Of a DNA stretch of 64,000 bases, positions 894 through 37,999 are shown piece after piece. Numbering within the stretch: the first letter of the stretch is position 1; each line of letters begins with the position of its first letter. This DNA comes from Escherichia phage HY03: the sequence record NC_031047.1. One strand, given 5' to 3'. A program made the position numbers and the translations under genes. The notes under the pieces were generated by a model. It worked only from the letters and a program-made list of their open reading frames with translations. It was not told the origin of the DNA and did not search any database.

Positions 894-1357
894 TTGTAAA
901 ATATATCAAGGGCGATATTGTCGCCCTTTTCACTGAAGGTAAAAATATTGCGCATGGATGCAATTGTTTTCATACGATGAAAGCTGGAGTCGCAGGTCAA
1001 TTAACCAAAGCTTTCCCTAAAATTTTGGAAGCTGATAAATTACAGACTGAATGGGGTGATGTAACTAAACTTGGTTCTTATTCAGTCTATGAAAAATACT
1101 TTAGGACTCATAAAGCTTACTGCTTTAATCTTTATACTCAATTTCAACCAGGGCCAAATTTTGAATATTCCGCTTTAATGAATTGTATGTTAGAATTAAA
1201 TGAGTTTGGTGAAAATAAACTGATTAAACCTACAATCTATATGCCTAGGATTGGTGCAGGCATAGGTAAAGGGAACTGGGATATTATTGAGGGGATTTTA
1301 GATACATATTCCTCTAAATTAGAAATTGTGATTGTTGATTGGGAACCATTATTATGA
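890..1357 (+). CDS. hypothetical protein with macro-domain-like motif (tk.4 position)
   Basis: 155-aa ORF; HGCNCFHTMKAGVAGQL resembles macro-domain ADP-ribose-binding loop; weak motif-level call. Confidence 0.5.
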   Translation: MIVKYIKGDIVALFTEGKNIAHGCNCFHTMKAGVAGQLTKAFPKILEADKLQTEWGDVTKLGSYSVYEKYFRTHKAYCFNLYTQFQPGPNFEYSALMNCMLELNEFGENKLIKPTIYMPRIGAGIGKGNWDIIEGILDTYSSKLEIVIVDWEPLL

Positions 1358-1566
1358 ATATACATTATCCACATCCATATGACCCAAAGAATAAGGCAGT
1401 AATTATTCGTCAATGGGAACGCATTTGCCGTACTAAATGCCCAATTAATAGTCCGCATGATGTAGATAAAGACTATATTGGAACATTCGTTGAATATACC
1501 TTTATTGATAAGAAAGGTCGTAAACAACACGTAGAAGAATATTGCTTAAAGGTGCAATGGTTATGA
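1354..1566 (+). CDS. hypothetical protein
   Basis: in-frame ATG of track ORF 1339..1566 in ATGA overlap with upstream stop. Confidence 0.45.
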   Translation: MNIHYPHPYDPKNKAVIIRQWERICRTKCPINSPHDVDKDYIGTFVEYTFIDKKGRKQHVEEYCLKVQWL

Positions 1567-1748
1567 GTCTGAGTAAAGGACAAAAAGATAAATTGTTTGA
1601 GCTTATCCATGAACTTCTAGATGAGCATACAGAAGCAAACACCTTTTATGATGAATACGGCCCGCTATCTCCCGAACAGCAAGAAGAATTTGCTGACCGG
1701 TTTGATAAGAAAGAAAACGAATTAATAGCTTATGTGAATACGCTTTAA
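1557..1748 (+). CDS. hypothetical acidic protein
   Basis: track ORF 1542..1748; first in-frame ATG after AAGGTG; start uncertain (1557 or 1563). Confidence 0.45.
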   Translation: MVMSLSKGQKDKLFELIHELLDEHTEANTFYDEYGPLSPEQQEEFADRFDKKENELIAYVNTL

Positions 1749-1757
1749 GAAGGTGAT

Positions 1758-2339
1758 ATGGCGAGTTTAATTTTTACTTATGCAGCAATGAATGCTGGAA
1801 AATCTGCTTCTCTTTTGACTGCTGCGCATAATTATAAAGAACGTGGAATGAGTGTATTAGTTCTTAAGCCTGCTATTGATACTCGTGATTCTGTCTGTGA
1901 AGTCGTTTCTCGCATTGGAATTAAACAGGAAGCTAATATTATTACGGATGATATGGATATTTTTGAGTTCTATAAATGGGCTGAAGCACAAAAAGATATT
2001 CATTGCGTATTTGTAGATGAAGCTCAGTTTTTAAAAACTGAACAAGTGCATCAATTGAGTCGAATTGTTGATACATATAATGTTCCTGTTATGGCTTATG
2101 GATTAAGGACTGATTTCGCTGGAAAATTATTTGAAGGTTCTAAAGAACTTTTGGCGATTGCAGATAAACTTATTGAACTAAAAGCAGTTTGTCATTGTGG
2201 TAAAAAAGCTATTATGACAGCTCGATTAATGGAAGATGGAACACCAGTTAAAGAAGGTAATCAAATCTGTATTGGTGATGAAATTTATGTTTCTTTGTGC
2301 AGAAAACATTGGAATGAATTAACTAAAAAGCTCGGTTAG
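1758..2339 (+). CDS. tk: thymidine kinase
   Basis: 193 aa; P-loop NAGKSASLL and C-terminal Cys cluster; matches recalled T4 Tk. Confidence 0.95.
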   Translation: MASLIFTYAAMNAGKSASLLTAAHNYKERGMSVLVLKPAIDTRDSVCEVVSRIGIKQEANIITDDMDIFEFYKWAEAQKDIHCVFVDEAQFLKTEQVHQLSRIVDTYNVPVMAYGLRTDFAGKLFEGSKELLAIADKLIELKAVCHCGKKAIMTARLMEDGTPVKEGNQICIGDEIYVSLCRKHWNELTKKLG

Positions 2340-21372: not shown

Positions 21373-22575
21373 ATGAAAGTATGCATTTTTCTGGCTCGGG
21401 GTCTTGAAGGTTGTGGTGTAACTAAATTTTCTCTTGAGCAGCGTGATTGGTTTATTAAAAATGGTCATGAAGTAACTTTGGTTTATGCTAAAGATAAATC
21501 ATTTACTCGTACAAGTTCTCATGACCACAAATCATTTTCAATTCCAGTTATTTTAGCTAAAGAATACGATAAAGCACTTAAACTGATTAATGATTGTGAT
21601 ATTCTAATTATTAATTCTGTTCCTGCTACTTCCGTTCAAGAAGCCACGATTAATAACTATAAAAAACTTTTAGATAATATTAAACCTTCTATTCGTGTTG
21701 TAGTTTATCAGCATGATCATTCTGTTCTTTCTTTGCGTCGAAATTTGGGATTAGAAGAAACTGTTCGTCGAGCTGATGTTATTTTTAGTCATTCTGATAA
21801 TGGCGATTTTAATAAAGTTCTGATGAAAGAATGGTATCCAGAAACTGTTTCTCTGTTTGATGATATTGAAGAAGCACCAACAGTATATAATTTTCAGCCT
21901 CCTATGGATATTGCGAAGGTTCGGTCAACTTATTGGAAAGATGTTTCTGAAATTAACATGAACATCAACCGTTGGATTGGTCGTACGACTACATGGAAAG
22001 GTTTTTATCAGATGTTTGATTTTCACGAAAAATTCTTAAAACCTGCTGGTAAATCCACTGTAATGGAAGGTCTTGAACGTTCCCCTGCTTTTATTGCAAT
22101 TAAGGAAAAAGGTATTCCGTATGAATATTATGGTAATCGTGAGATTGATAAAATGAATCTCACGCCGAATCAACCGGCACAAATCCTAGATTGTTATATT
22201 AATAGTGAAATGCTTGAACGAATGAGTAAATCTGGCTTTGGATATCAGTTGAGTAAACTTAACCAGAAATACTTACAACGCTCACTCGAATATACTCATC
22301 TTGAATTAGGTGCTTGCGGTACAATTCCTGTTTTCTGGAAATCAACAGGTGATAATTTAAAATTCCGTGTTGATAATACTCCTTTGACCTCACATGATAG
22401 CGGTATCATTTGGTTTGATGAAAATGACATGGAATCAACATTCGAGCGTATTAAAGAACTGTCATCTGACCGAGCTCTTTATGACCGTGAGCGAGAAAAA
22501 GCATATGAATTTTTGTATCAGCATCAAGATTCAAGCTTCTGCTTTAAAGAACAGTTTGACATTATTACAAAATAA
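21373..22575 (+). CDS. agt: DNA alpha-glucosyltransferase
   Basis: 400 aa; matches recalled T4 alpha-gt. Confidence 0.9.
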   Translation: MKVCIFLARGLEGCGVTKFSLEQRDWFIKNGHEVTLVYAKDKSFTRTSSHDHKSFSIPVILAKEYDKALKLINDCDILIINSVPATSVQEATINNYKKLLDNIKPSIRVVVYQHDHSVLSLRRNLGLEETVRRADVIFSHSDNGDFNKVLMKEWYPETVSLFDDIEEAPTVYNFQPPMDIAKVRSTYWKDVSEINMNINRWIGRTTTWKGFYQMFDFHEKFLKPAGKSTVMEGLERSPAFIAIKEKGIPYEYYGNREIDKMNLTPNQPAQILDCYINSEMLERMSKSGFGYQLSKLNQKYLQRSLEYTHLELGACGTIPVFWKSTGDNLKFRVDNTPLTSHDSGIIWFDENDMESTFERIKELSSDRALYDREREKAYEFLYQHQDSSFCFKEQFDIITK

Positions 22576-32819: not shown

Positions 32820-33071
32820 ATGGAAACTTTAGTAGCAGGTTCAATTTTTATGGTTTTAGTTTCAGGCGTGTTGGCTATTATTATATACATGCTTCCATGG
32901 TTTATCGCCTTGATGCGTGGGTCAAAATCGACAGTAGGAATCTTTTTCACATCTTTACTGTTTAACTGGTCAATTATTGGTTGGTTTATTACATTTATTT
33001 GGTCAATTGCAGGTGAAACTAAAAAGTCTGCGCAGCCAAATCAGGTAATTATCATCAGAGAGAAGGAATGA
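32820..33071 (+). CDS. imm: superinfection immunity membrane protein
   Basis: 83 aa, two hydrophobic helices; size and position as in T4. Confidence 0.8.
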   Translation: METLVAGSIFMVLVSGVLAIIIYMLPWFIALMRGSKSTVGIFFTSLLFNWSIIGWFITFIWSIAGETKKSAQPNQVIIIREKE

Positions 33072-33217
33072 AAAGCAAAATTATAACAGCATTGCTTTTA
33101 ATCTTGATGGTTATAATAAGTATATACTATAGTGTAACGGTTCCTCTTATGATTCCAACTATTGTTTTAGGTTGGAGTTTATTACTGTTACAAGTTAAAT
33201 ATGAATGTATCAATTGA
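33068..33217 (+). CDS. hypothetical small membrane protein
   Basis: 49-aa hydrophobic ORF; ATGA overlap with imm stop. Confidence 0.4.
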   Translation: MKSKIITALLLILMVIISIYYSVTVPLMIPTIVLGWSLLLLQVKYECIN

Positions 33218-33224
33218 GGTTTAA

Positions 33225-33965
33225 ATGATTAGTGACTCTATGACAGTTGAAGAAATCCGTCTTCATTTGGGGCTTGCATTAAAGGAAAAAGATTTCGTAG
33301 TTGATAAAACTGGCGTTAAAACTATTGAAATTATTGGCGCATCATTTGTAGCAGATGAACCGTTTATTTTTGGCGCTCTTAATGATGAATACATTCAGCG
33401 TGAACTTGAATGGTATAAGTCTCAAAGTCTGTTTGTTAAAGATATTCCAGGTGAAACACCGAAGATTTGGCAGCAGGTAGCATCTTCTAAAGGTGAAATT
33501 AACTCGAATTATGGTTGGGCTATCTGGTCAGAAGATAACTATGCTCAATATGATATGTGTTTAGCTGAACTTGGTCAAAATCCTGATTCTCGACGTGGTA
33601 TCATGATTTATACTCGTCCATCTATGCAGTTTGACTACAATAAAGATGGCATGTCAGATTTCATGTGTACGAATACAGTACAGTACCTGATTCGTGATAA
33701 GAAAGTCAATGCGGTTGTTAGCATGAGAAGCAATGATTGCTGGGCAGGCTATCGTAATGATTATGCTTGGCAAAAATACGTACTAGATAAATTAGTATCT
33801 GATTTGAATGCAGGCGACCCATCGCGGCAATATAAAGCAGGTTCTATTATATGGAACGTTGGAAGTCTTCATGTGTACGAAAATCAGTTTTATTTAGTTG
33901 ACCATTGGTGGAACACCGGTGAGACTCATATTGCTAAAAAGGATTATACTGGAAAATGGAAGTAA
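33225..33965 (+). CDS. 42: dCMP hydroxymethylase
   Basis: 246 aa; thymidylate-synthase-like fold; matches recalled T4 gp42. Confidence 0.9.
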   Translation: MISDSMTVEEIRLHLGLALKEKDFVVDKTGVKTIEIIGASFVADEPFIFGALNDEYIQRELEWYKSQSLFVKDIPGETPKIWQQVASSKGEINSNYGWAIWSEDNYAQYDMCLAELGQNPDSRRGIMIYTRPSMQFDYNKDGMSDFMCTNTVQYLIRDKKVNAVVSMRSNDCWAGYRNDYAWQKYVLDKLVSDLNAGDPSRQYKAGSIIWNVGSLHVYENQFYLVDHWWNTGETHIAKKDYTGKWK

Positions 33966-34597
33966 ATGTGCCGCATGTTTATAAGTATAAACATCCTAAA
34001 ACTAAAAAGTGGTATATAGGAAGTCATGATGGTCACAACCCGAATTATGATGGTTCGGGTGTAGTTTGGCAACATGCTAAAAAGAAATATGGAATAAAAT
34101 CCTTTAATAAAGAAATATTATATGAAGGACCAATGTTTAGACAGGTTGAAGAAATTATTTTAACTTGTTTAGATGCTGCTAATTGTCCGGATTCATATAA
34201 TTTAAAGAATGAAGCATGGGGAGGAAGTTTTCCAGGCAAATTAAATGGAATGTACGGTAAAAAACTATCTCCAGAAGAAAGATATAAGTGCGGAAATGCC
34301 TTTCGTGGAATCAAGCGTCCTGATCATTCTAAAAGAATGAAAGGCGAAGGTAATCCAATGTATGGTAAAAATGAGCAGGCATATGGAATTATAAATCGAG
34401 CCAAGGAAAATTCTGGTAAAACTTATGAAGAAATTTTTGGCGTAGAAAAAGCTAAAATAATTAAAGAAACGATGTCTAAAAATCGTAAAGGAAAACCTCA
34501 TAATTTGATAGAAAAAATATGTCCGCATTGCGGACTAAAAGGACGTGGGCCAAATATGACAAGATACCATTTTGACAAATGTAAGGCACTTAAATGA
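33956..34597 (+). CDS. free-standing GIY-YIG homing endonuclease
   Basis: 213 aa; HVYKYKHPKTKKWYIGSH motif; NUMOD-like repeats; C-terminal CPHCG...C zinc motif; overlaps gene 42 stop. Confidence 0.75.
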   Translation: MEVNVPHVYKYKHPKTKKWYIGSHDGHNPNYDGSGVVWQHAKKKYGIKSFNKEILYEGPMFRQVEEIILTCLDAANCPDSYNLKNEAWGGSFPGKLNGMYGKKLSPEERYKCGNAFRGIKRPDHSKRMKGEGNPMYGKNEQAYGIINRAKENSGKTYEEIFGVEKAKIIKETMSKNRKGKPHNLIEKICPHCGLKGRGPNMTRYHFDKCKALK

Positions 34598-35436
34598 TTC
34601 AATTCGTAATTCCAAGTTATCAGCGTGTAGGGGCAGTTTCTGCCCTTAATATGTTTCCGACTGATTATGAACCCCATATTGTAGTGCGTGAACACGAAGA
34701 AAAAGCTTATTATGATGCTTATGGGTCTAGAGCTAAAATTGTAACTATTCCTGATGATGTTAATGGAATTTCCGGTACTCGTAAAGCAATTACTGATATG
34801 TATGCAGGTCAACGAATCTGGATGATTGATGATGATACTACTATTCGTATGAGTTCAATACGAAAGAGAGACGATAAACGGCGCGTAGATAAAATTAATC
34901 AATTAACTCGTGAACAGTTCTATGAATTAATTCAATACGTTGAGGATGCTATGGATTGCGGGTATTATCACGGTCATGCTCGTCTACCAATTTTTAAAAT
35001 TACTTCATCTTGGGGTAATTATCGTGAAAACTCATATGGATTCACGAATACATGGTATGACCTCGGAAAACTTACGGCAGAACAAATTGGGTATGGAAAA
35101 ATTGATTTATGCGAAGATATGTATGCATTTCTCAATTTAATTAATCAAGGTTATCCGCATTTGGCCTTGTTCAAATATCTAGTTGTATCTGGAAAATCAC
35201 ACGCTCCCGGTGGGTGTAGTTCAATTCGTAGTAATTCTAAACATAATAGAGCGCTTGAGCAAATCAATAGAGAGTTTCCAGAGCAAGCTCGTTGGAAAAC
35301 TTCAAATATTGAAAAACGAAAATCGTTGGGTGAAGAAGACGAGCCATTAAAGGTTCTTCGCATGTGTGTTTCGCGTAAAGAAAAATCAGAAGCATTTCAT
35401 AAGTTTAATGCTATTCATCCAATAGCAGTTGATTAA
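34594..35436 (+). CDS. putative glycosyltransferase (not T4 beta-gt; possibly beta-alpha-gt-like)
   Basis: 280 aa; acidic IWMIDDD motif; occupies the T4 beta-gt slot but does not match recalled T4 beta-gt. Confidence 0.55.
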   Translation: MIQFVIPSYQRVGAVSALNMFPTDYEPHIVVREHEEKAYYDAYGSRAKIVTIPDDVNGISGTRKAITDMYAGQRIWMIDDDTTIRMSSIRKRDDKRRVDKINQLTREQFYELIQYVEDAMDCGYYHGHARLPIFKITSSWGNYRENSYGFTNTWYDLGKLTAEQIGYGKIDLCEDMYAFLNLINQGYPHLALFKYLVVSGKSHAPGGCSSIRSNSKHNRALEQINREFPEQARWKTSNIEKRKSLGEEDEPLKVLRMCVSRKEKSEAFHKFNAIHPIAVD

Positions 35437-35513
35437 TGCCTAAATTTATTGTGTTATAATTACCCTATCTTTAACCAGTGAGGAAAATATAATGATGCCT
35501 ATGGAAAAAATGA

Positions 35514-36443
35514 ATGTCTATTGCAGATTTAAAATCCCGTTTGATTAAAGCTTCCACTTCTAAAATGACTGCAGAGCTTACTAAAAGCAAGTTCTTTAAT
35601 GAAAAGGATGTGGTTCGTACTAAAATTCCAATGCTGAATATTGCAATTAGCGGTGCGTTGGACGGTGGCATGCAGTCTGGTTTAACTATTTTCGCAGGGC
35701 CTTCTAAACATTTTAAATCTAATATGTCACTGACAATGGTAGCAGCTTATTTGAATAAGTATCCTGATGCTATCTGTTTGTTCTATGACTCAGAGTTTGG
35801 TATCACTCCGGCTTATCTTAAGTCTATGGGTGTTGACCCGGAACGAGTAATTCATACGCCAATCCAATCAGTTGAACAGCTGAAAATTGATATGGTGAAT
35901 CAGCTTGAAACTATTGAGCGTGGTGAAAAGGTTATTGTATTCATCGACTCAATTGGTAATATGGCTTCTAAGAAAGAAACGGAAGATGCCTTGAATGAAA
36001 AATCTGTGGCAGATATGACTCGTGCTAAATCACTGAAGTCATTATTCCGTATTGTTACTCCTTATTTTAGTATTAAAAACATTCCATGTGTTGCGGTTAA
36101 CCATACAATTGAAACAATTGAACTGTTTAGTAAAACCGTGATGACAGGTGGTTGTGTTATTGCTGGTACTAAAATCCAGATGTCCGATGGTTCTACTAAA
36201 GCAGTTGAAGATATTCGTCCAGGTGAACGTGTTAAAACCATGGTCGGTGATAATGAAGTAACTTATGTTTGGGACCCAGAAACTCTGGCTGAAGGTACTC
36301 CTGAATGTTTCGAAATTGAATTCGAAGACGGTTATAAAGTAACTACTTCAGATACCCACAAGTTCCTGGTAATGGTTAAAGACATTCCAACTTGGGTTGA
36401 AGCTAAAGATTTAGTAGCTGGAATGGATTGTGTTGTAAGGTAA
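35514..36443 (+). CDS. uvsX: UvsX recombinase N-terminal extein (213 aa) fused to N-terminal intein fragment (96 aa)
   Basis: matches T4 UvsX to ...FSKTVMTGG, then CVIAGTKIQMSDGS (intein block A) and TSDTHKFLV (block B); ends at double stop TAA TAA. Confidence 0.85.
   Translation: MSIADLKSRLIKASTSKMTAELTKSKFFNEKDVVRTKIPMLNIAISGALDGGMQSGLTIFAGPSKHFKSNMSLTMVAAYLNKYPDAICLFYDSEFGITPAYLKSMGVDPERVIHTPIQSVEQLKIDMVNQLETIERGEKVIVFIDSIGNMASKKETEDALNEKSVADMTRAKSLKSLFRIVTPYFSIKNIPCVAVNHTIETIELFSKTVMTGGCVIAGTKIQMSDGSTKAVEDIRPGERVKTMVGDNEVTYVWDPETLAEGTPECFEIEFEDGYKVTTSDTHKFLVMVKDIPTWVEAKDLVAGMDCVVR
36153..36440 (+). other. intein N-terminal fragment (Hint blocks A and B)
   Basis: starts at Cys codon directly after extein TGG; 96 codons. 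Confidence 0.8.
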
Positions 36444-36446
36444 TAA

Positions 36447-36488
36447 ATATGGGTACCGGACTAATGTATATTTTTGAGGTACCCATAT
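36447..36488 (+). promoter_or_regulatory. stem-loop occluding the endonuclease start codon
   Basis: perfect 11-bp inverted repeat ATATGGGTACC / GGTACCCATAT, 20-nt loop; right arm overlaps the GAGG RBS and the AT of the ATG at 36487. Confidence 0.65.
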
Positions 36489-37209
36489 GAATTTTGTCTA
36501 TAAAATTGTGTTCAACGATAGAATTAAAAACGGCACTCCGCCGTATTACTACATAGGAAGCAAGACAAATGCTTCTTATGTAGACGGTAAGATTATTGAC
36601 GCCCGTGGTCGCGAGTACTATGGCTCATCGAGATATCCCGGATATCATGATTTTATCAATAATGTTACTGTTGAAATACTGGAGCAATATGATGATATTA
36701 AACATGCTAAACTGCTAGAGCGCGAAAATTTCTATCAGAAACAAGTAAACGTTAAAACAAATCCAGATTATTTTAATTTGGATTATGCTTGTGGACATAA
36801 TTCATATGCTAATGCTGATTTTGCATCATACAAGCATCATATAACAGGTAAATGTATTCGTCTTGAAAGAAACCATCCGCTTGTTAAATCTGGTGTGTAT
36901 GTTGGCGTCACAAAAGGCGTGAAATCTTCTGATGAACACCGTAAGCACATATCAGAAGGTATTACAGGAGAAAACAATGGGTTCTATGGTAAGAAACACA
37001 CCAAAGAAACAATTAATGAAATATCAGAAAAAGCAAAGAAAAGATTAAAGCATTCTCATCCTAGACAAAAAGGCGTTATCATAAACGGTATTGAATACCG
37101 GGGCGTCAGACCTGCTGCAAGAGCGCTGGGAATTAATCCTAACACAATTATCAACAAAATTAAAGCTAACACAAAAGGATGGGCTTATGCAGTAGATGCA
37201 CGTGGTTAA
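36487..37209 (+). CDS. free-standing GIY-YIG homing endonuclease between the split intein halves
   Basis: 240 aa; VYKIVFNDRIKNGTPPYYYIGSK motif; ENNGFYGKKHTKETINEISEKAKK and C-terminal segment resemble I-TevI linker/DNA-binding region. Confidence 0.8.
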   Translation: MNFVYKIVFNDRIKNGTPPYYYIGSKTNASYVDGKIIDARGREYYGSSRYPGYHDFINNVTVEILEQYDDIKHAKLLERENFYQKQVNVKTNPDYFNLDYACGHNSYANADFASYKHHITGKCIRLERNHPLVKSGVYVGVTKGVKSSDEHRKHISEGITGENNGFYGKKHTKETINEISEKAKKRLKHSHPRQKGVIINGIEYRGVRPAARALGINPNTIINKIKANTKGWAYAVDARG

Positions 37210-37351
37210 GGCATTCCAATGCGAGTTCTTTACGGGTTCGCACTACATTCGAAGATATGGTAAAAGAATTTGGAATGAACGCGACAATCAAGATTATGCT
37301 TTCATGAAATATGTATATTGAAACTAGCTACTACGAAACACAAGGTAAAGT

Positions 37352-37456
37352 ATGAAAATTAAATCTGTTAAATCTGTTGGTAAAAAAGAAGTCTATGATT
37401 TGTCTGTTGCTGACGTAGAGCATTATGTTTTAGAAAATGGTATCGTTACACACAAT
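37352..37456 (+). other. intein C-terminal fragment (Hint blocks F and G)
   Basis: ends ...THN followed by Thr as +1 extein residue. Confidence 0.8.
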
Positions 37457-37999
37457 ACAGGCGTAATGTATTCGGCTGATACTGTATTCATTATCGGTAA
37501 GCGTCAGATTAAAGATGGTTCTGATCTTCAGGGGTATCAATTTGTTCTAAATGTAGAAAAATCTCGTACCGTTAAAGAAAAAAGTAAATTCTTTATTGAT
37601 GTTAAATTTGACGGTGGTATCGATCCTTATTCTGGATTGTTAGATATGGCTCTAGAATTAGGATTTGTAGTAAAACCAAAAAATGGCTGGTATGCTCGTG
37701 AATTTCTTGATGAAGAAACCGGCGAGATGATTCGCGAAGAAAAATCTTGGCGTGCAAAAGATACCAACTGCACTACATTCTGGGGTCCTTTATTTAAGCA
37801 TCAACCATTCCGAGATGCTATTAAACGTGCTTATCAGTTAGGTGCTATTGATAGTAATGAAATTGTTGAAGCTGAAGTTGATGAATTGATTAACTCAAAG
37901 GTTGAAAAATTTAAATCTCCAGAAAGTAAAAGTAAATCAGCAGCTGATTTAGAAACTGACCTCGAGCAGTTAAGTGATATGGAAGAATTTAATGAATAA
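37352..37999 (+). CDS. uvsX: C-terminal intein fragment (35 aa) fused to UvsX C-terminal extein (180 aa)
   Basis: own ATG and AAGGT RBS; VYDLSVADVEHYVLENGIVTHN (blocks F/G) then TGVMYSADTVFIIGKRQ... matching T4 UvsX C-terminus. Confidence 0.85.
   Translation: MKIKSVKSVGKKEVYDLSVADVEHYVLENGIVTHNTGVMYSADTVFIIGKRQIKDGSDLQGYQFVLNVEKSRTVKEKSKFFIDVKFDGGIDPYSGLLDMALELGFVVKPKNGWYAREFLDEETGEMIREEKSWRAKDTNCTTFWGPLFKHQPFRDAIKRAYQLGAIDSNEIVEAEVDELINSKVEKFKSPESKSKSAADLETDLEQLSDMEEFNE

Follow-up and report, generated by a model that had tools for sequence, protein, structure and literature searches.

The slot between gene 42 and uvsX, which in phage T4 holds the beta-glucosyltransferase gene beta-gt (351 amino acids, aa), raises two questions in Escherichia phage HY03: which enzyme for the glucosylation of hydroxymethylcytosine (hmC) has taken this place, and whether a homing endonuclease gene lying directly beside it brought it there. 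We analysed a stretch of 64,000 nucleotides (nt) of this phage (NC_031047.1), hereafter the window. A preliminary description had correctly placed beta-gt between gene 42 and uvsX in T4, but omitted segA, the gene for a GIY-YIG homing endonuclease on the far side of the glucosyltransferase gene; in the window it had reported a 213-aa GIY-YIG open reading frame (ORF) overlapping the end of gene 42, followed by a 280-aa protein with a DDD motif and no resemblance to T4 beta-gt. This observation is confirmed. Gene 42 (33225..33965, + strand; 246 aa), assigned to the deoxycytidylate (dCMP) hydroxymethylase by its Pfam Thymidylat_synt match, is collinear with and ∼91% identical to gene 42 of both T2 and T4. 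Both ORFs follow on the + strand: HEG1, the gene for a putative free-standing Seg-type GIY-YIG homing endonuclease (33956..34597; 213 aa), overlaps the stop of gene 42 by 10 nt at its start, and at its end overlaps by 4 nt (ATGA) the start of ba-gt (34594..35436; 280 aa), the gene for a T2/T6-type beta-glucosyl-HMC-alpha-glucosyltransferase of the TAGT family. The two frames are kept in tens to hundreds of phage records, and their ratios of nonsynonymous to synonymous substitution rates (dN/dS) against Klebsiella-phage orthologues are 0.17 for HEG1 and 0.22 for ba-gt; purifying selection and conservation across records thus argue that neither is a chance ORF. Very probably, the locus combines hmC modification by the T2/T6 route with an optional insertion of a Seg-type endonuclease gene that would spread by intronless homing and is not the cause of the difference from the T4 cassette.

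Judged by its sequence, the 280-aa protein is the long-known ba-gt product of T2 and T6, neither a new enzyme nor the diverged beta-gt that the preliminary description had considered as an alternative. The comparison with the T2/T6 enzymes that it had suggested gave 268 identical residues of 280 (96%) over the full length of the T2 beta-glucosyl-HMC-alpha-glucosyltransferase, with a dN/dS of 0.10 indicative of purifying selection. The protein matches Pfam PF20691 (TAGT, TET-associated glycosyltransferase) over model positions 2-205 of 205 with 40.2 bits (gathering score 27.5) and PHROG 842, “beta-glucosyl-HMC-alpha-glucosyltransferase,” with an E-value of 3.4e-87. It is already annotated under this name in RefSeq (YP_009284145, Escherichia phage HY03, the exact sequence), and an exact look-up placed it, the endonuclease and three proteins of the uvsX region all in Escherichia phage HY03 (AKJ72813-17). 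The acidic triplet is D79-D80-D81 (WMIDDDTT; nt 34828..34836) and is invariant in 10 homologues down to 31% identity. No similarity of the protein to T4 beta-gt was detectable (best BLASTP E = 4.2), a PDB sequence search with it returned nothing at E ≤ 1, and NCBIfam holds no model for ba-gt or alpha-gt.

An AlphaFold (AF2) model of ba-gt computed with 10 homologues as input was of moderate quality (predicted local distance difference test, pLDDT, 69; predicted template modelling score, pTM, 0.71). Its best Foldseek matches in the PDB all have the GT-A fold (WrtF, TarS, TarP) but are weak (template modelling score, TM, ∼0.4; E ∼1e-3); TarS and TarP are inverting GT2 beta-N-acetylglucosamine transferases. 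T4 beta-gt has a GT-B fold, and none of its entries occurred among the top 50 Foldseek PDB matches of the model. The GT-A matches of the predicted structure would fit an inverting, DxD- and metal-dependent transfer from uridine diphosphate (UDP)-alpha-glucose that makes a beta-1,6 bond, and from the family assignment ba-gt is most probably a GT-A-like DxD enzyme that works with UDP-glucose as donor and a divalent metal, with inversion at the anomeric carbon. With ba-gt of T2 and T6 the protein shares its length of 280 aa, the slot between gene 42 and uvsX, an alpha-gt partner and the invariant DDD; it differs from that of T2 by 12 substitutions and by its start, whose ATGA overlaps the HEG1 ORF rather than gene 42. 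T4 beta-gt occupies the syntenic slot and, like ba-gt, acts on hmC DNA after replication, but besides being unrelated in sequence it takes free hmC as acceptor instead of alpha-glucosyl-hmC.

The partner gene, alpha-gt (21373..22575, + strand; 400 aa), is 98% identical to that of T4 over 400/400 residues and has thus rightly been called T4-like. The pathway can be pictured as follows. Gene 42 would supply hydroxymethyl-dCMP, the source of hmC for both glucosyltransferases; alpha-gt would add alpha-glucose to hmC in DNA and so create the acceptor for ba-gt, which would link a further glucose through a beta-1,6 bond to some of the alpha-glucosyl-hmC, yielding gentiobiosyl-hmC. The DNA of HY03 is accordingly expected to carry alpha-glucosyl- and gentiobiosyl-hmC of the T2/T6 type rather than the alpha- and beta-monoglucosyl-hmC of T4, and beta-monoglucosyl-hmC would be absent. 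The earlier suggestion that the second glucosylation step should differ from that of T4 therefore holds, but with 96% identity to the T2 enzyme the step belongs to the classical T2/T6 pathway and is not a new one.

The neighbouring 213-aa protein is filed as a Seg-type free-standing GIY-YIG homing endonuclease, an assignment drawn from profile matches and alignments. It matches PHROG 314, “homing endonuclease” (E 2.3e-31), and is 32% identical to T4 SegA (E 4e-9) and 35% identical to SegC over the N-terminal 132 residues. A GIY-YIG domain at about residues 7-86 is followed by a NUMOD3-like linker and by a C-terminal C-x2-C...H-x3-C motif (residues 189-209; nt 34520..34582). In an alignment of HEG1, SegA, the endonuclease borne by uvsX in the window and the Klebsiella homologue, Y9 (VYKY), Y20-I-G22, E66 and N82 are invariant, and Y9, Y20, E66 and N82 align with Y6, Y17, E75 and N90 of I-TevI. 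When a Seg profile was run against the whole PDB, the sole match was the I-TevI catalytic domain, at a marginal E-value of 0.086 and with correct alignment of GIY, YIG, Glu and Asn; the single HEG1 sequence retrieved from the PDB only a spurious sugar-binding protein (E 0.52). The Pfam scan gave no match of HEG1 to GIY-YIG, and the scores for NUMOD3 (18 vs 20.4 bits) and TIGR01453 (24 vs 56 bits) were below threshold. No residue could be aligned with the canonical catalytic Arg (R27 of I-TevI), a position that in HEG1 falls inside an insert relative to the Seg profile; SegA, too, is without an alignable Arg there, and SegA is an active enzyme (PMC2988022). Like T4 SegA, SegC, SegF and SegG, HEG1 has a GIY-YIG N-terminal domain and a NUMOD-type tail, stands free between conserved genes, is present or absent among T-even phages, and appears to have a target that lies some way off in an adjacent essential gene, with a co-converted tract. 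Apart from the identity of only 32-35% to SegA and SegC and its C-terminal CCHC motif, it differs from SegA in its position (42/ba-gt instead of beta-gt/uvsX) and in its probable target, gene 42 in place of uvsX. We found no published name or characterisation for an endonuclease in the 42/ba-gt slot, which is weak evidence, as most subscription-journal papers were not covered.

The population sample was built from GenBank phage records; a scan of IMG/VR with ba-gt gave 5 loci. Insertion boundaries were determined by direct reading of the junctions together with ungapped per-window identity. Relative to T2-type phages the window carries ∼630 nt of extra DNA (33966..34591, + strand, from the junction sequences), which sit exactly behind the last sense codon of gene 42 and in front of the start of ba-gt. 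In T2 nothing separates the two genes, the stop of the one overlapping the start of the other (TGGAAATGA; junction TGGAAATGATTC); in the window the stop codon of HEG1 itself restores the coupling to ba-gt (ATGA). A junction query found the HEG1/ba-gt boundary spanned in 76 of the 477 ba-gt-bearing Tequatrovirus records. Copies of HEG1 at ≥95% identity likewise number 76 records (≥99% in 70/76), and the other 401/477, T2 included, are without HEG1, homology resuming at window position 34592. A 70%-identical HEG1 homologue occupies the same slot in Klebsiella Jiaodavirus phages. Recent transfer of HEG1 between the genera is not supported, because the synonymous distance (dS) of HEG1 between Tequatrovirus and Jiaodavirus, ∼1.4 and saturated, equals that of gene 42 and ba-gt, although the power of this test is low. 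The partial genome of Klebsiella phage vB_KpnM_GF (MK421971; locus L022, ∼1164..1900) has a gene 42 that breaks off at residue 214, and upstream of ba-gt it retains no more of the HEG1 homologue than the final ∼30 codons; this represents either a deletion into an essential gene or an assembly artefact.

Where HEG1 might cut is suggested by gene 42 itself. We compared 7 loci with HEG1 (HEG+) to 10 without (HEG-), the latter including T2 and T4, and found 38 fixed differences, all confined to the ∼240 nt of gene 42 positions 502-738 (33726..33962, + strand); neither gene 42 nt 1-501 nor the 843 nt of ba-gt contains any. The densest part of this recoded 3' tail is nt 502-528 (33726..33752, + strand), where 18 of 27 positions are fixed differences: HEG- phages, T4 and T2 identically, have CGCTCAAATGACGTGGTCTTCGGATTC (R-S-N-D-V-V-F-G-F), and the window has AGAAGCAATGATTGCTGGGCAGGCTAT (R-S-N-D-C-W-A-G-Y). 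Given codon by codon as HEG-/window, the block reads CGC/AGA, TCA/AGC, AAT/AAT, GAC/GAT, GTG/TGC, GTC/TGG, TTC/GCA, GGA/GGC and TTC/TAT, so that at Arg168 and Ser169 the six-fold codon family is swapped while the amino acid is kept. At ≥95% identity the recoded tail was recovered from exactly 76 records, a number equal to that of the HEG1-positive ones (76/76 linkage); a further 424 records match it at only 80-90%, and all those sampled align only from just past the dense block. The same pattern, with the same identity breakpoint, is repeated independently in Jiaodavirus, where the HEG+ phages KP185 and Roth78 encode CWAGY and QNQ and the HEG- phages KP179 and PhiKR1 encode VVFGY and ERH. Eight records form an intermediate class typified by Escherichia phage BYEP01 (OR757453; locus L023, 1110..1850), in which the recoded block (CWAGY/ENQ type) is present without HEG1: 32 of the 38 sites are in the HEG+ state, the sequence returns to the T2/HEG- type after about nt 690, and the 42/ba-gt junction is empty. 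These genomes carry the footprint either of a short conversion tract or later crossover, or of endonuclease loss; a short repair tract or later crossover would be expected to leave such a pattern if the break lies near the block and not at the insertion point.

The dense block encodes R-S-N-D, a conserved active-site motif of the thymidylate-synthase superfamily, and conserved sequences coding for active sites are typical targets of homing endonucleases (PMC2988022). Free-standing T4 endonucleases cleave at a distance from their insertion site, and the intervening DNA is co-converted in a process termed “intronless homing” (PMC2988022). From this population genetics we infer, with somewhat better than even confidence, that the target of HEG1 is the endonuclease-free gene 42 near nt 502-528. 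In a mixed infection HEG1 would then cut a HEG-free gene 42 some 210-240 bp upstream of its own insertion point, and repair from the HEG1-bearing genome would copy the recoded, cleavage-immune tail and usually HEG1 as well, an intronless homing route of the SegF/SegG kind.

The main rival to a target in gene 42 is cleavage at the empty 42/ba-gt junction, the insertion site of HEG1 itself, in the manner of intron-encoded enzymes, with the recoded tail merely hitch-hiking as donor DNA. In its favour, the exact insertion of HEG1 does away with the TGGAAATGATTC junction, and the HEG+ alleles of the two genera resemble each other somewhat more closely in the tail (0.82-0.83) than towards the 5' end of gene 42 (0.58-0.83; mostly 0.65-0.75). 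Hitch-hiking, however, should fade with distance, whereas the farthest block, 240 bp away, is the densest and is found in 76/76 HEG+ records, and recombination is free directly upstream of the tail and in ba-gt. The codon-family swaps at Arg168 and Ser169 are synonymous and therefore suggest selection at the nucleotide level, and the BYEP01-type genomes keep the block alongside an empty junction. We therefore regard cleavage at the junction as doubtful and keep to a probable target in the dense block of gene 42.

Several points nevertheless weigh against the overall explanation of a T2/T6-type pathway with an optional homing insertion. The recoded tail could be plain hitch-hiking from a foreign donor allele, and since the block alters four amino acids (VVFGF to CWAGY), selection on the gene 42 protein is conceivable as well. 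The endonuclease assignment has to do without a Pfam GIY-YIG match, with 24 against 56 bits for TIGR01453, with a PDB profile match at E 0.086 and with a catalytic Arg that could not be located. The ba-gt model is only moderate (pLDDT 69) and its fold matches are weak (TM ∼0.4, E ∼1e-3). Finally, gentiobiosylation affects ∼5% of cytidines in T2 and 72% in T6 (PMC13390438), and its extent in HY03 cannot be predicted.

The preliminary description had proposed the endonuclease as a plausible driver of the cassette exchange. Stated in full, this would mean that HEG1 drove, or still drives, the replacement of beta-gt by ba-gt: a cut in a T4-type gene 42 would be repaired out to uvsX, and beta-gt-segA would be replaced by HEG1-ba-gt. 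At the recoded block T4 gene 42 indeed has the HEG-, presumably sensitive, sequence; all 76 HEG1 copies adjoin ba-gt and none adjoins beta-gt, as obligatory co-transfer would produce; and marker exclusion accompanied by co-conversion is an established effect of free-standing endonucleases (PMC2988022). T4 has no homologue of ba-gt, and in a mixed infection with it homing might thus be possible only if ba-gt moves too, since the next stretch of shared sequence downstream begins past the glucosyltransferase gene. As the origin of the cassette difference, however, the proposal found no support. The slot holds ba-gt without HEG1 in 84% of records (401 of 477, among them T2, RB5 and RB14), and ba-gt homologues occur in other genera, too. 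The tract linked to HEG1 extends upstream into gene 42 and not into the glucosyltransferase gene, and since ba-gt shows no fixed differences between HEG+ and HEG- phages, it does not travel with HEG1. The 76/76 adjacency is equally explained if HEG1 circulates only among ba-gt phages.

The distribution of the two transferases points the same way. In all, 687 phage records encode ba-gt homologues, 473 of them at ≥90% identity, and T4-type beta-gt at ≥90% identity is a rare state found in only about 29 records; ba-gt is therefore the common state of the genus and T4 the exception, and HEG1 did not create the beta-gt/ba-gt difference. This agrees with the review literature, in which T2, T6 and all close T-even relatives carry ba-gt in the slot syntenic with T4 beta-gt and no member other than T4 was known to combine alpha-gt and beta-gt (PMC2993671). 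Two papers of 2026 equate ba-gt with TAGT (PF20691) and likewise assign it to the place that corresponds by synteny to T4 beta-GT (PMC13390438, PMC13216743), and the gene has been tied to gentiobiosyl-hmC (PMC13390438, PMC13216743, PMC2993671). With ba-gt so prevalent, an exchange driven by HEG1 is unlikely, and the locus is better read as a T2/T6-type pathway into which HEG1 was inserted.

Other arrangements of the slot were also seen. In Enterobacter phage myPSH1140 and similar phages (Karamvirus-type) a beta-gt homologue, ∼49% identical to that of T4, adjoins a ba-gt homologue, and a combination of beta-gt and ba-gt was noted for phage CC31 by Petrov et al. 2010 (PMC2993671). Shigella phage ESh36 (ON528746; locus L014, 1503..3015) has the order 42 / ba-gt / SegA / uvsX, with a SegA 99% identical to that of T4, so that T4 SegA also occurs beside a T2-type transferase. 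Since ESh36 pairs ba-gt with a T4-like SegA, cassettes and endonucleases assort independently.

HEG1 might also be an inactive relic that no longer cuts. It is split into two ORFs in REP2/REP3 (127 + 86 aa) and in PYps5T (110 + 117 aa), Klebsiella phage GF retains only its last ∼30 codons, and its catalytic Arg was not identified. Yet the ORF is intact in the window and in most copies (70/76 at ≥99% identity), its dN/dS of 0.17 was obtained at a synonymous distance that is saturated, GIY, YIG, Glu and Asn have been conserved, and the active SegA is without an alignable Arg as well, all of which makes a relic very unlikely. It is barely conceivable that the 280-aa protein represents a novel type of glycosyltransferase with a previously unknown second-step sugar modification: the protein is unrelated to T4 beta-gt and sequence searches detect no solved structure for it, but it is 96% identical to a biochemically defined T2 enzyme at a dN/dS of 0.10, RefSeq names it ba-gt, and family, slot and product are described in the literature.

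Around these genes a few further features were recorded. A scan of 33100..35600 for sigma-70 promoters and terminators found 10, with 10.6 expected from shuffled sequences, and thus no enrichment. One hairpin, flagged as terminator-like, has a 9-bp stem (TAGGGGCAG-TTT-CTGCCCTTA; 34628..34648) and lies 35 nt into the ba-gt coding region; its stem GGGGCAG/CTGCCC is also found in T2 and Klebsiella phage GF. Between imm and gene 42 there is a 49-aa ORF (33068..33217) that carries the annotation 42.1 in RB5 and RB14 and is present in ELT1; it is unannotated in the T2 and T4 records.

Downstream of ba-gt, a probable split intein divides uvsX (35514..37999) into two ORFs, with an endonuclease gene between the halves, an arrangement known as a “fractured gene.” The first ORF (35514..36443) encodes UvsX residues 1-213 and a 96-aa N-terminal intein part (IntN; 36153..36440, Cys1 at nt 36153), and the second (37352..37999) a 35-aa C-terminal part (IntC; 37352..37456, ending in VTHN, with Thr+1 at nt 37457) and UvsX residues 214-393; between them lies the gene for a free-standing 240-aa GIY-YIG/NUMOD endonuclease (36487..37209). 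Splicing in silico yields a 393-aa UvsX, identical to that of T2 at 386/393 positions with 0 gaps. The intein models matched below their curated cut-offs (Hint E 1.5e-4; Vint E 3.5e-4; Intein_splicing E 5.6e-3 for the N part and 1.4e-4 for the C part). The split element is found in 23 phage records from several Straboviridae genera, comprising phages of Escherichia, Salmonella, Proteus, Enterobacter, Klebsiella, Pseudomonas, Shewanella, Vibrio and Yersinia, and its public annotation is only “uvsX_1/uvsX_2” or “recombination protein (x2)” plus endonuclease. The order of N-extein with IntN, GIY-YIG endonuclease and IntC with C-extein is the same as in the fractured genes of Dassa et al. 2009 (PMC2677866), but the hosts there are metagenomic gp41, NrdA, NrdJ, IMPDH, DnaE, ligase and terminase genes and UvsX is mentioned only as a neighbouring ORF (PMC2677866), whereas here it is the host gene, in cultured enterobacterial T4-like phages. 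No paper describing a uvsX split intein in coliphages was found, again weak evidence with most subscription-journal papers outside the coverage. The split intein is more unusual than the ba-gt/HEG1 finding.

Within the N-extein, a patch of ∼300 nt (35557..35860) shares only 73-87% identity with either ELT1 or T2. In this patch ELT1 and T2 are 95-100% identical to each other, and elsewhere ELT1 is 98-100% identical to the window. With only 6 amino-acid differences in the 213-residue N-extein, the divergence is mostly synonymous. T4 SegA cuts in uvsX, and the patch could therefore be another endonuclease-related mosaic or immunity patch.

The ba-gt and HEG1 features of this locus are already known and annotated in public records; they are real but ordinary, and outside of correct annotation they are of little consequence. 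What is new, on a modest scale, is a concrete predicted cut site, at about nt 502-528 of gene 42, for an uncharacterised Seg-type endonuclease. It is tempting to speculate further that HEG1 cuts the R-S-N-D stretch of gene 42 and carries its immune tail in both Tequatrovirus and Jiaodavirus, and that homing switches the hypermodification of T4-type recipients. We give this only a small chance; if true, homing into T4-type genomes would swap beta-gt-segA for HEG1-ba-gt, and a selfish nuclease would change the type of DNA hypermodification of its recipient. The type of glucosylation affects the sensitivity of HY03 to glucose-specific host defences, such as GmrSD-family enzymes and Brig1 (PMC13216743), and is relevant to the choice of therapy phages. 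Together, HEG1, the SegA of other phages and the endonuclease of the uvsX intein offer a compact natural case of homing endonucleases competing around three genes.

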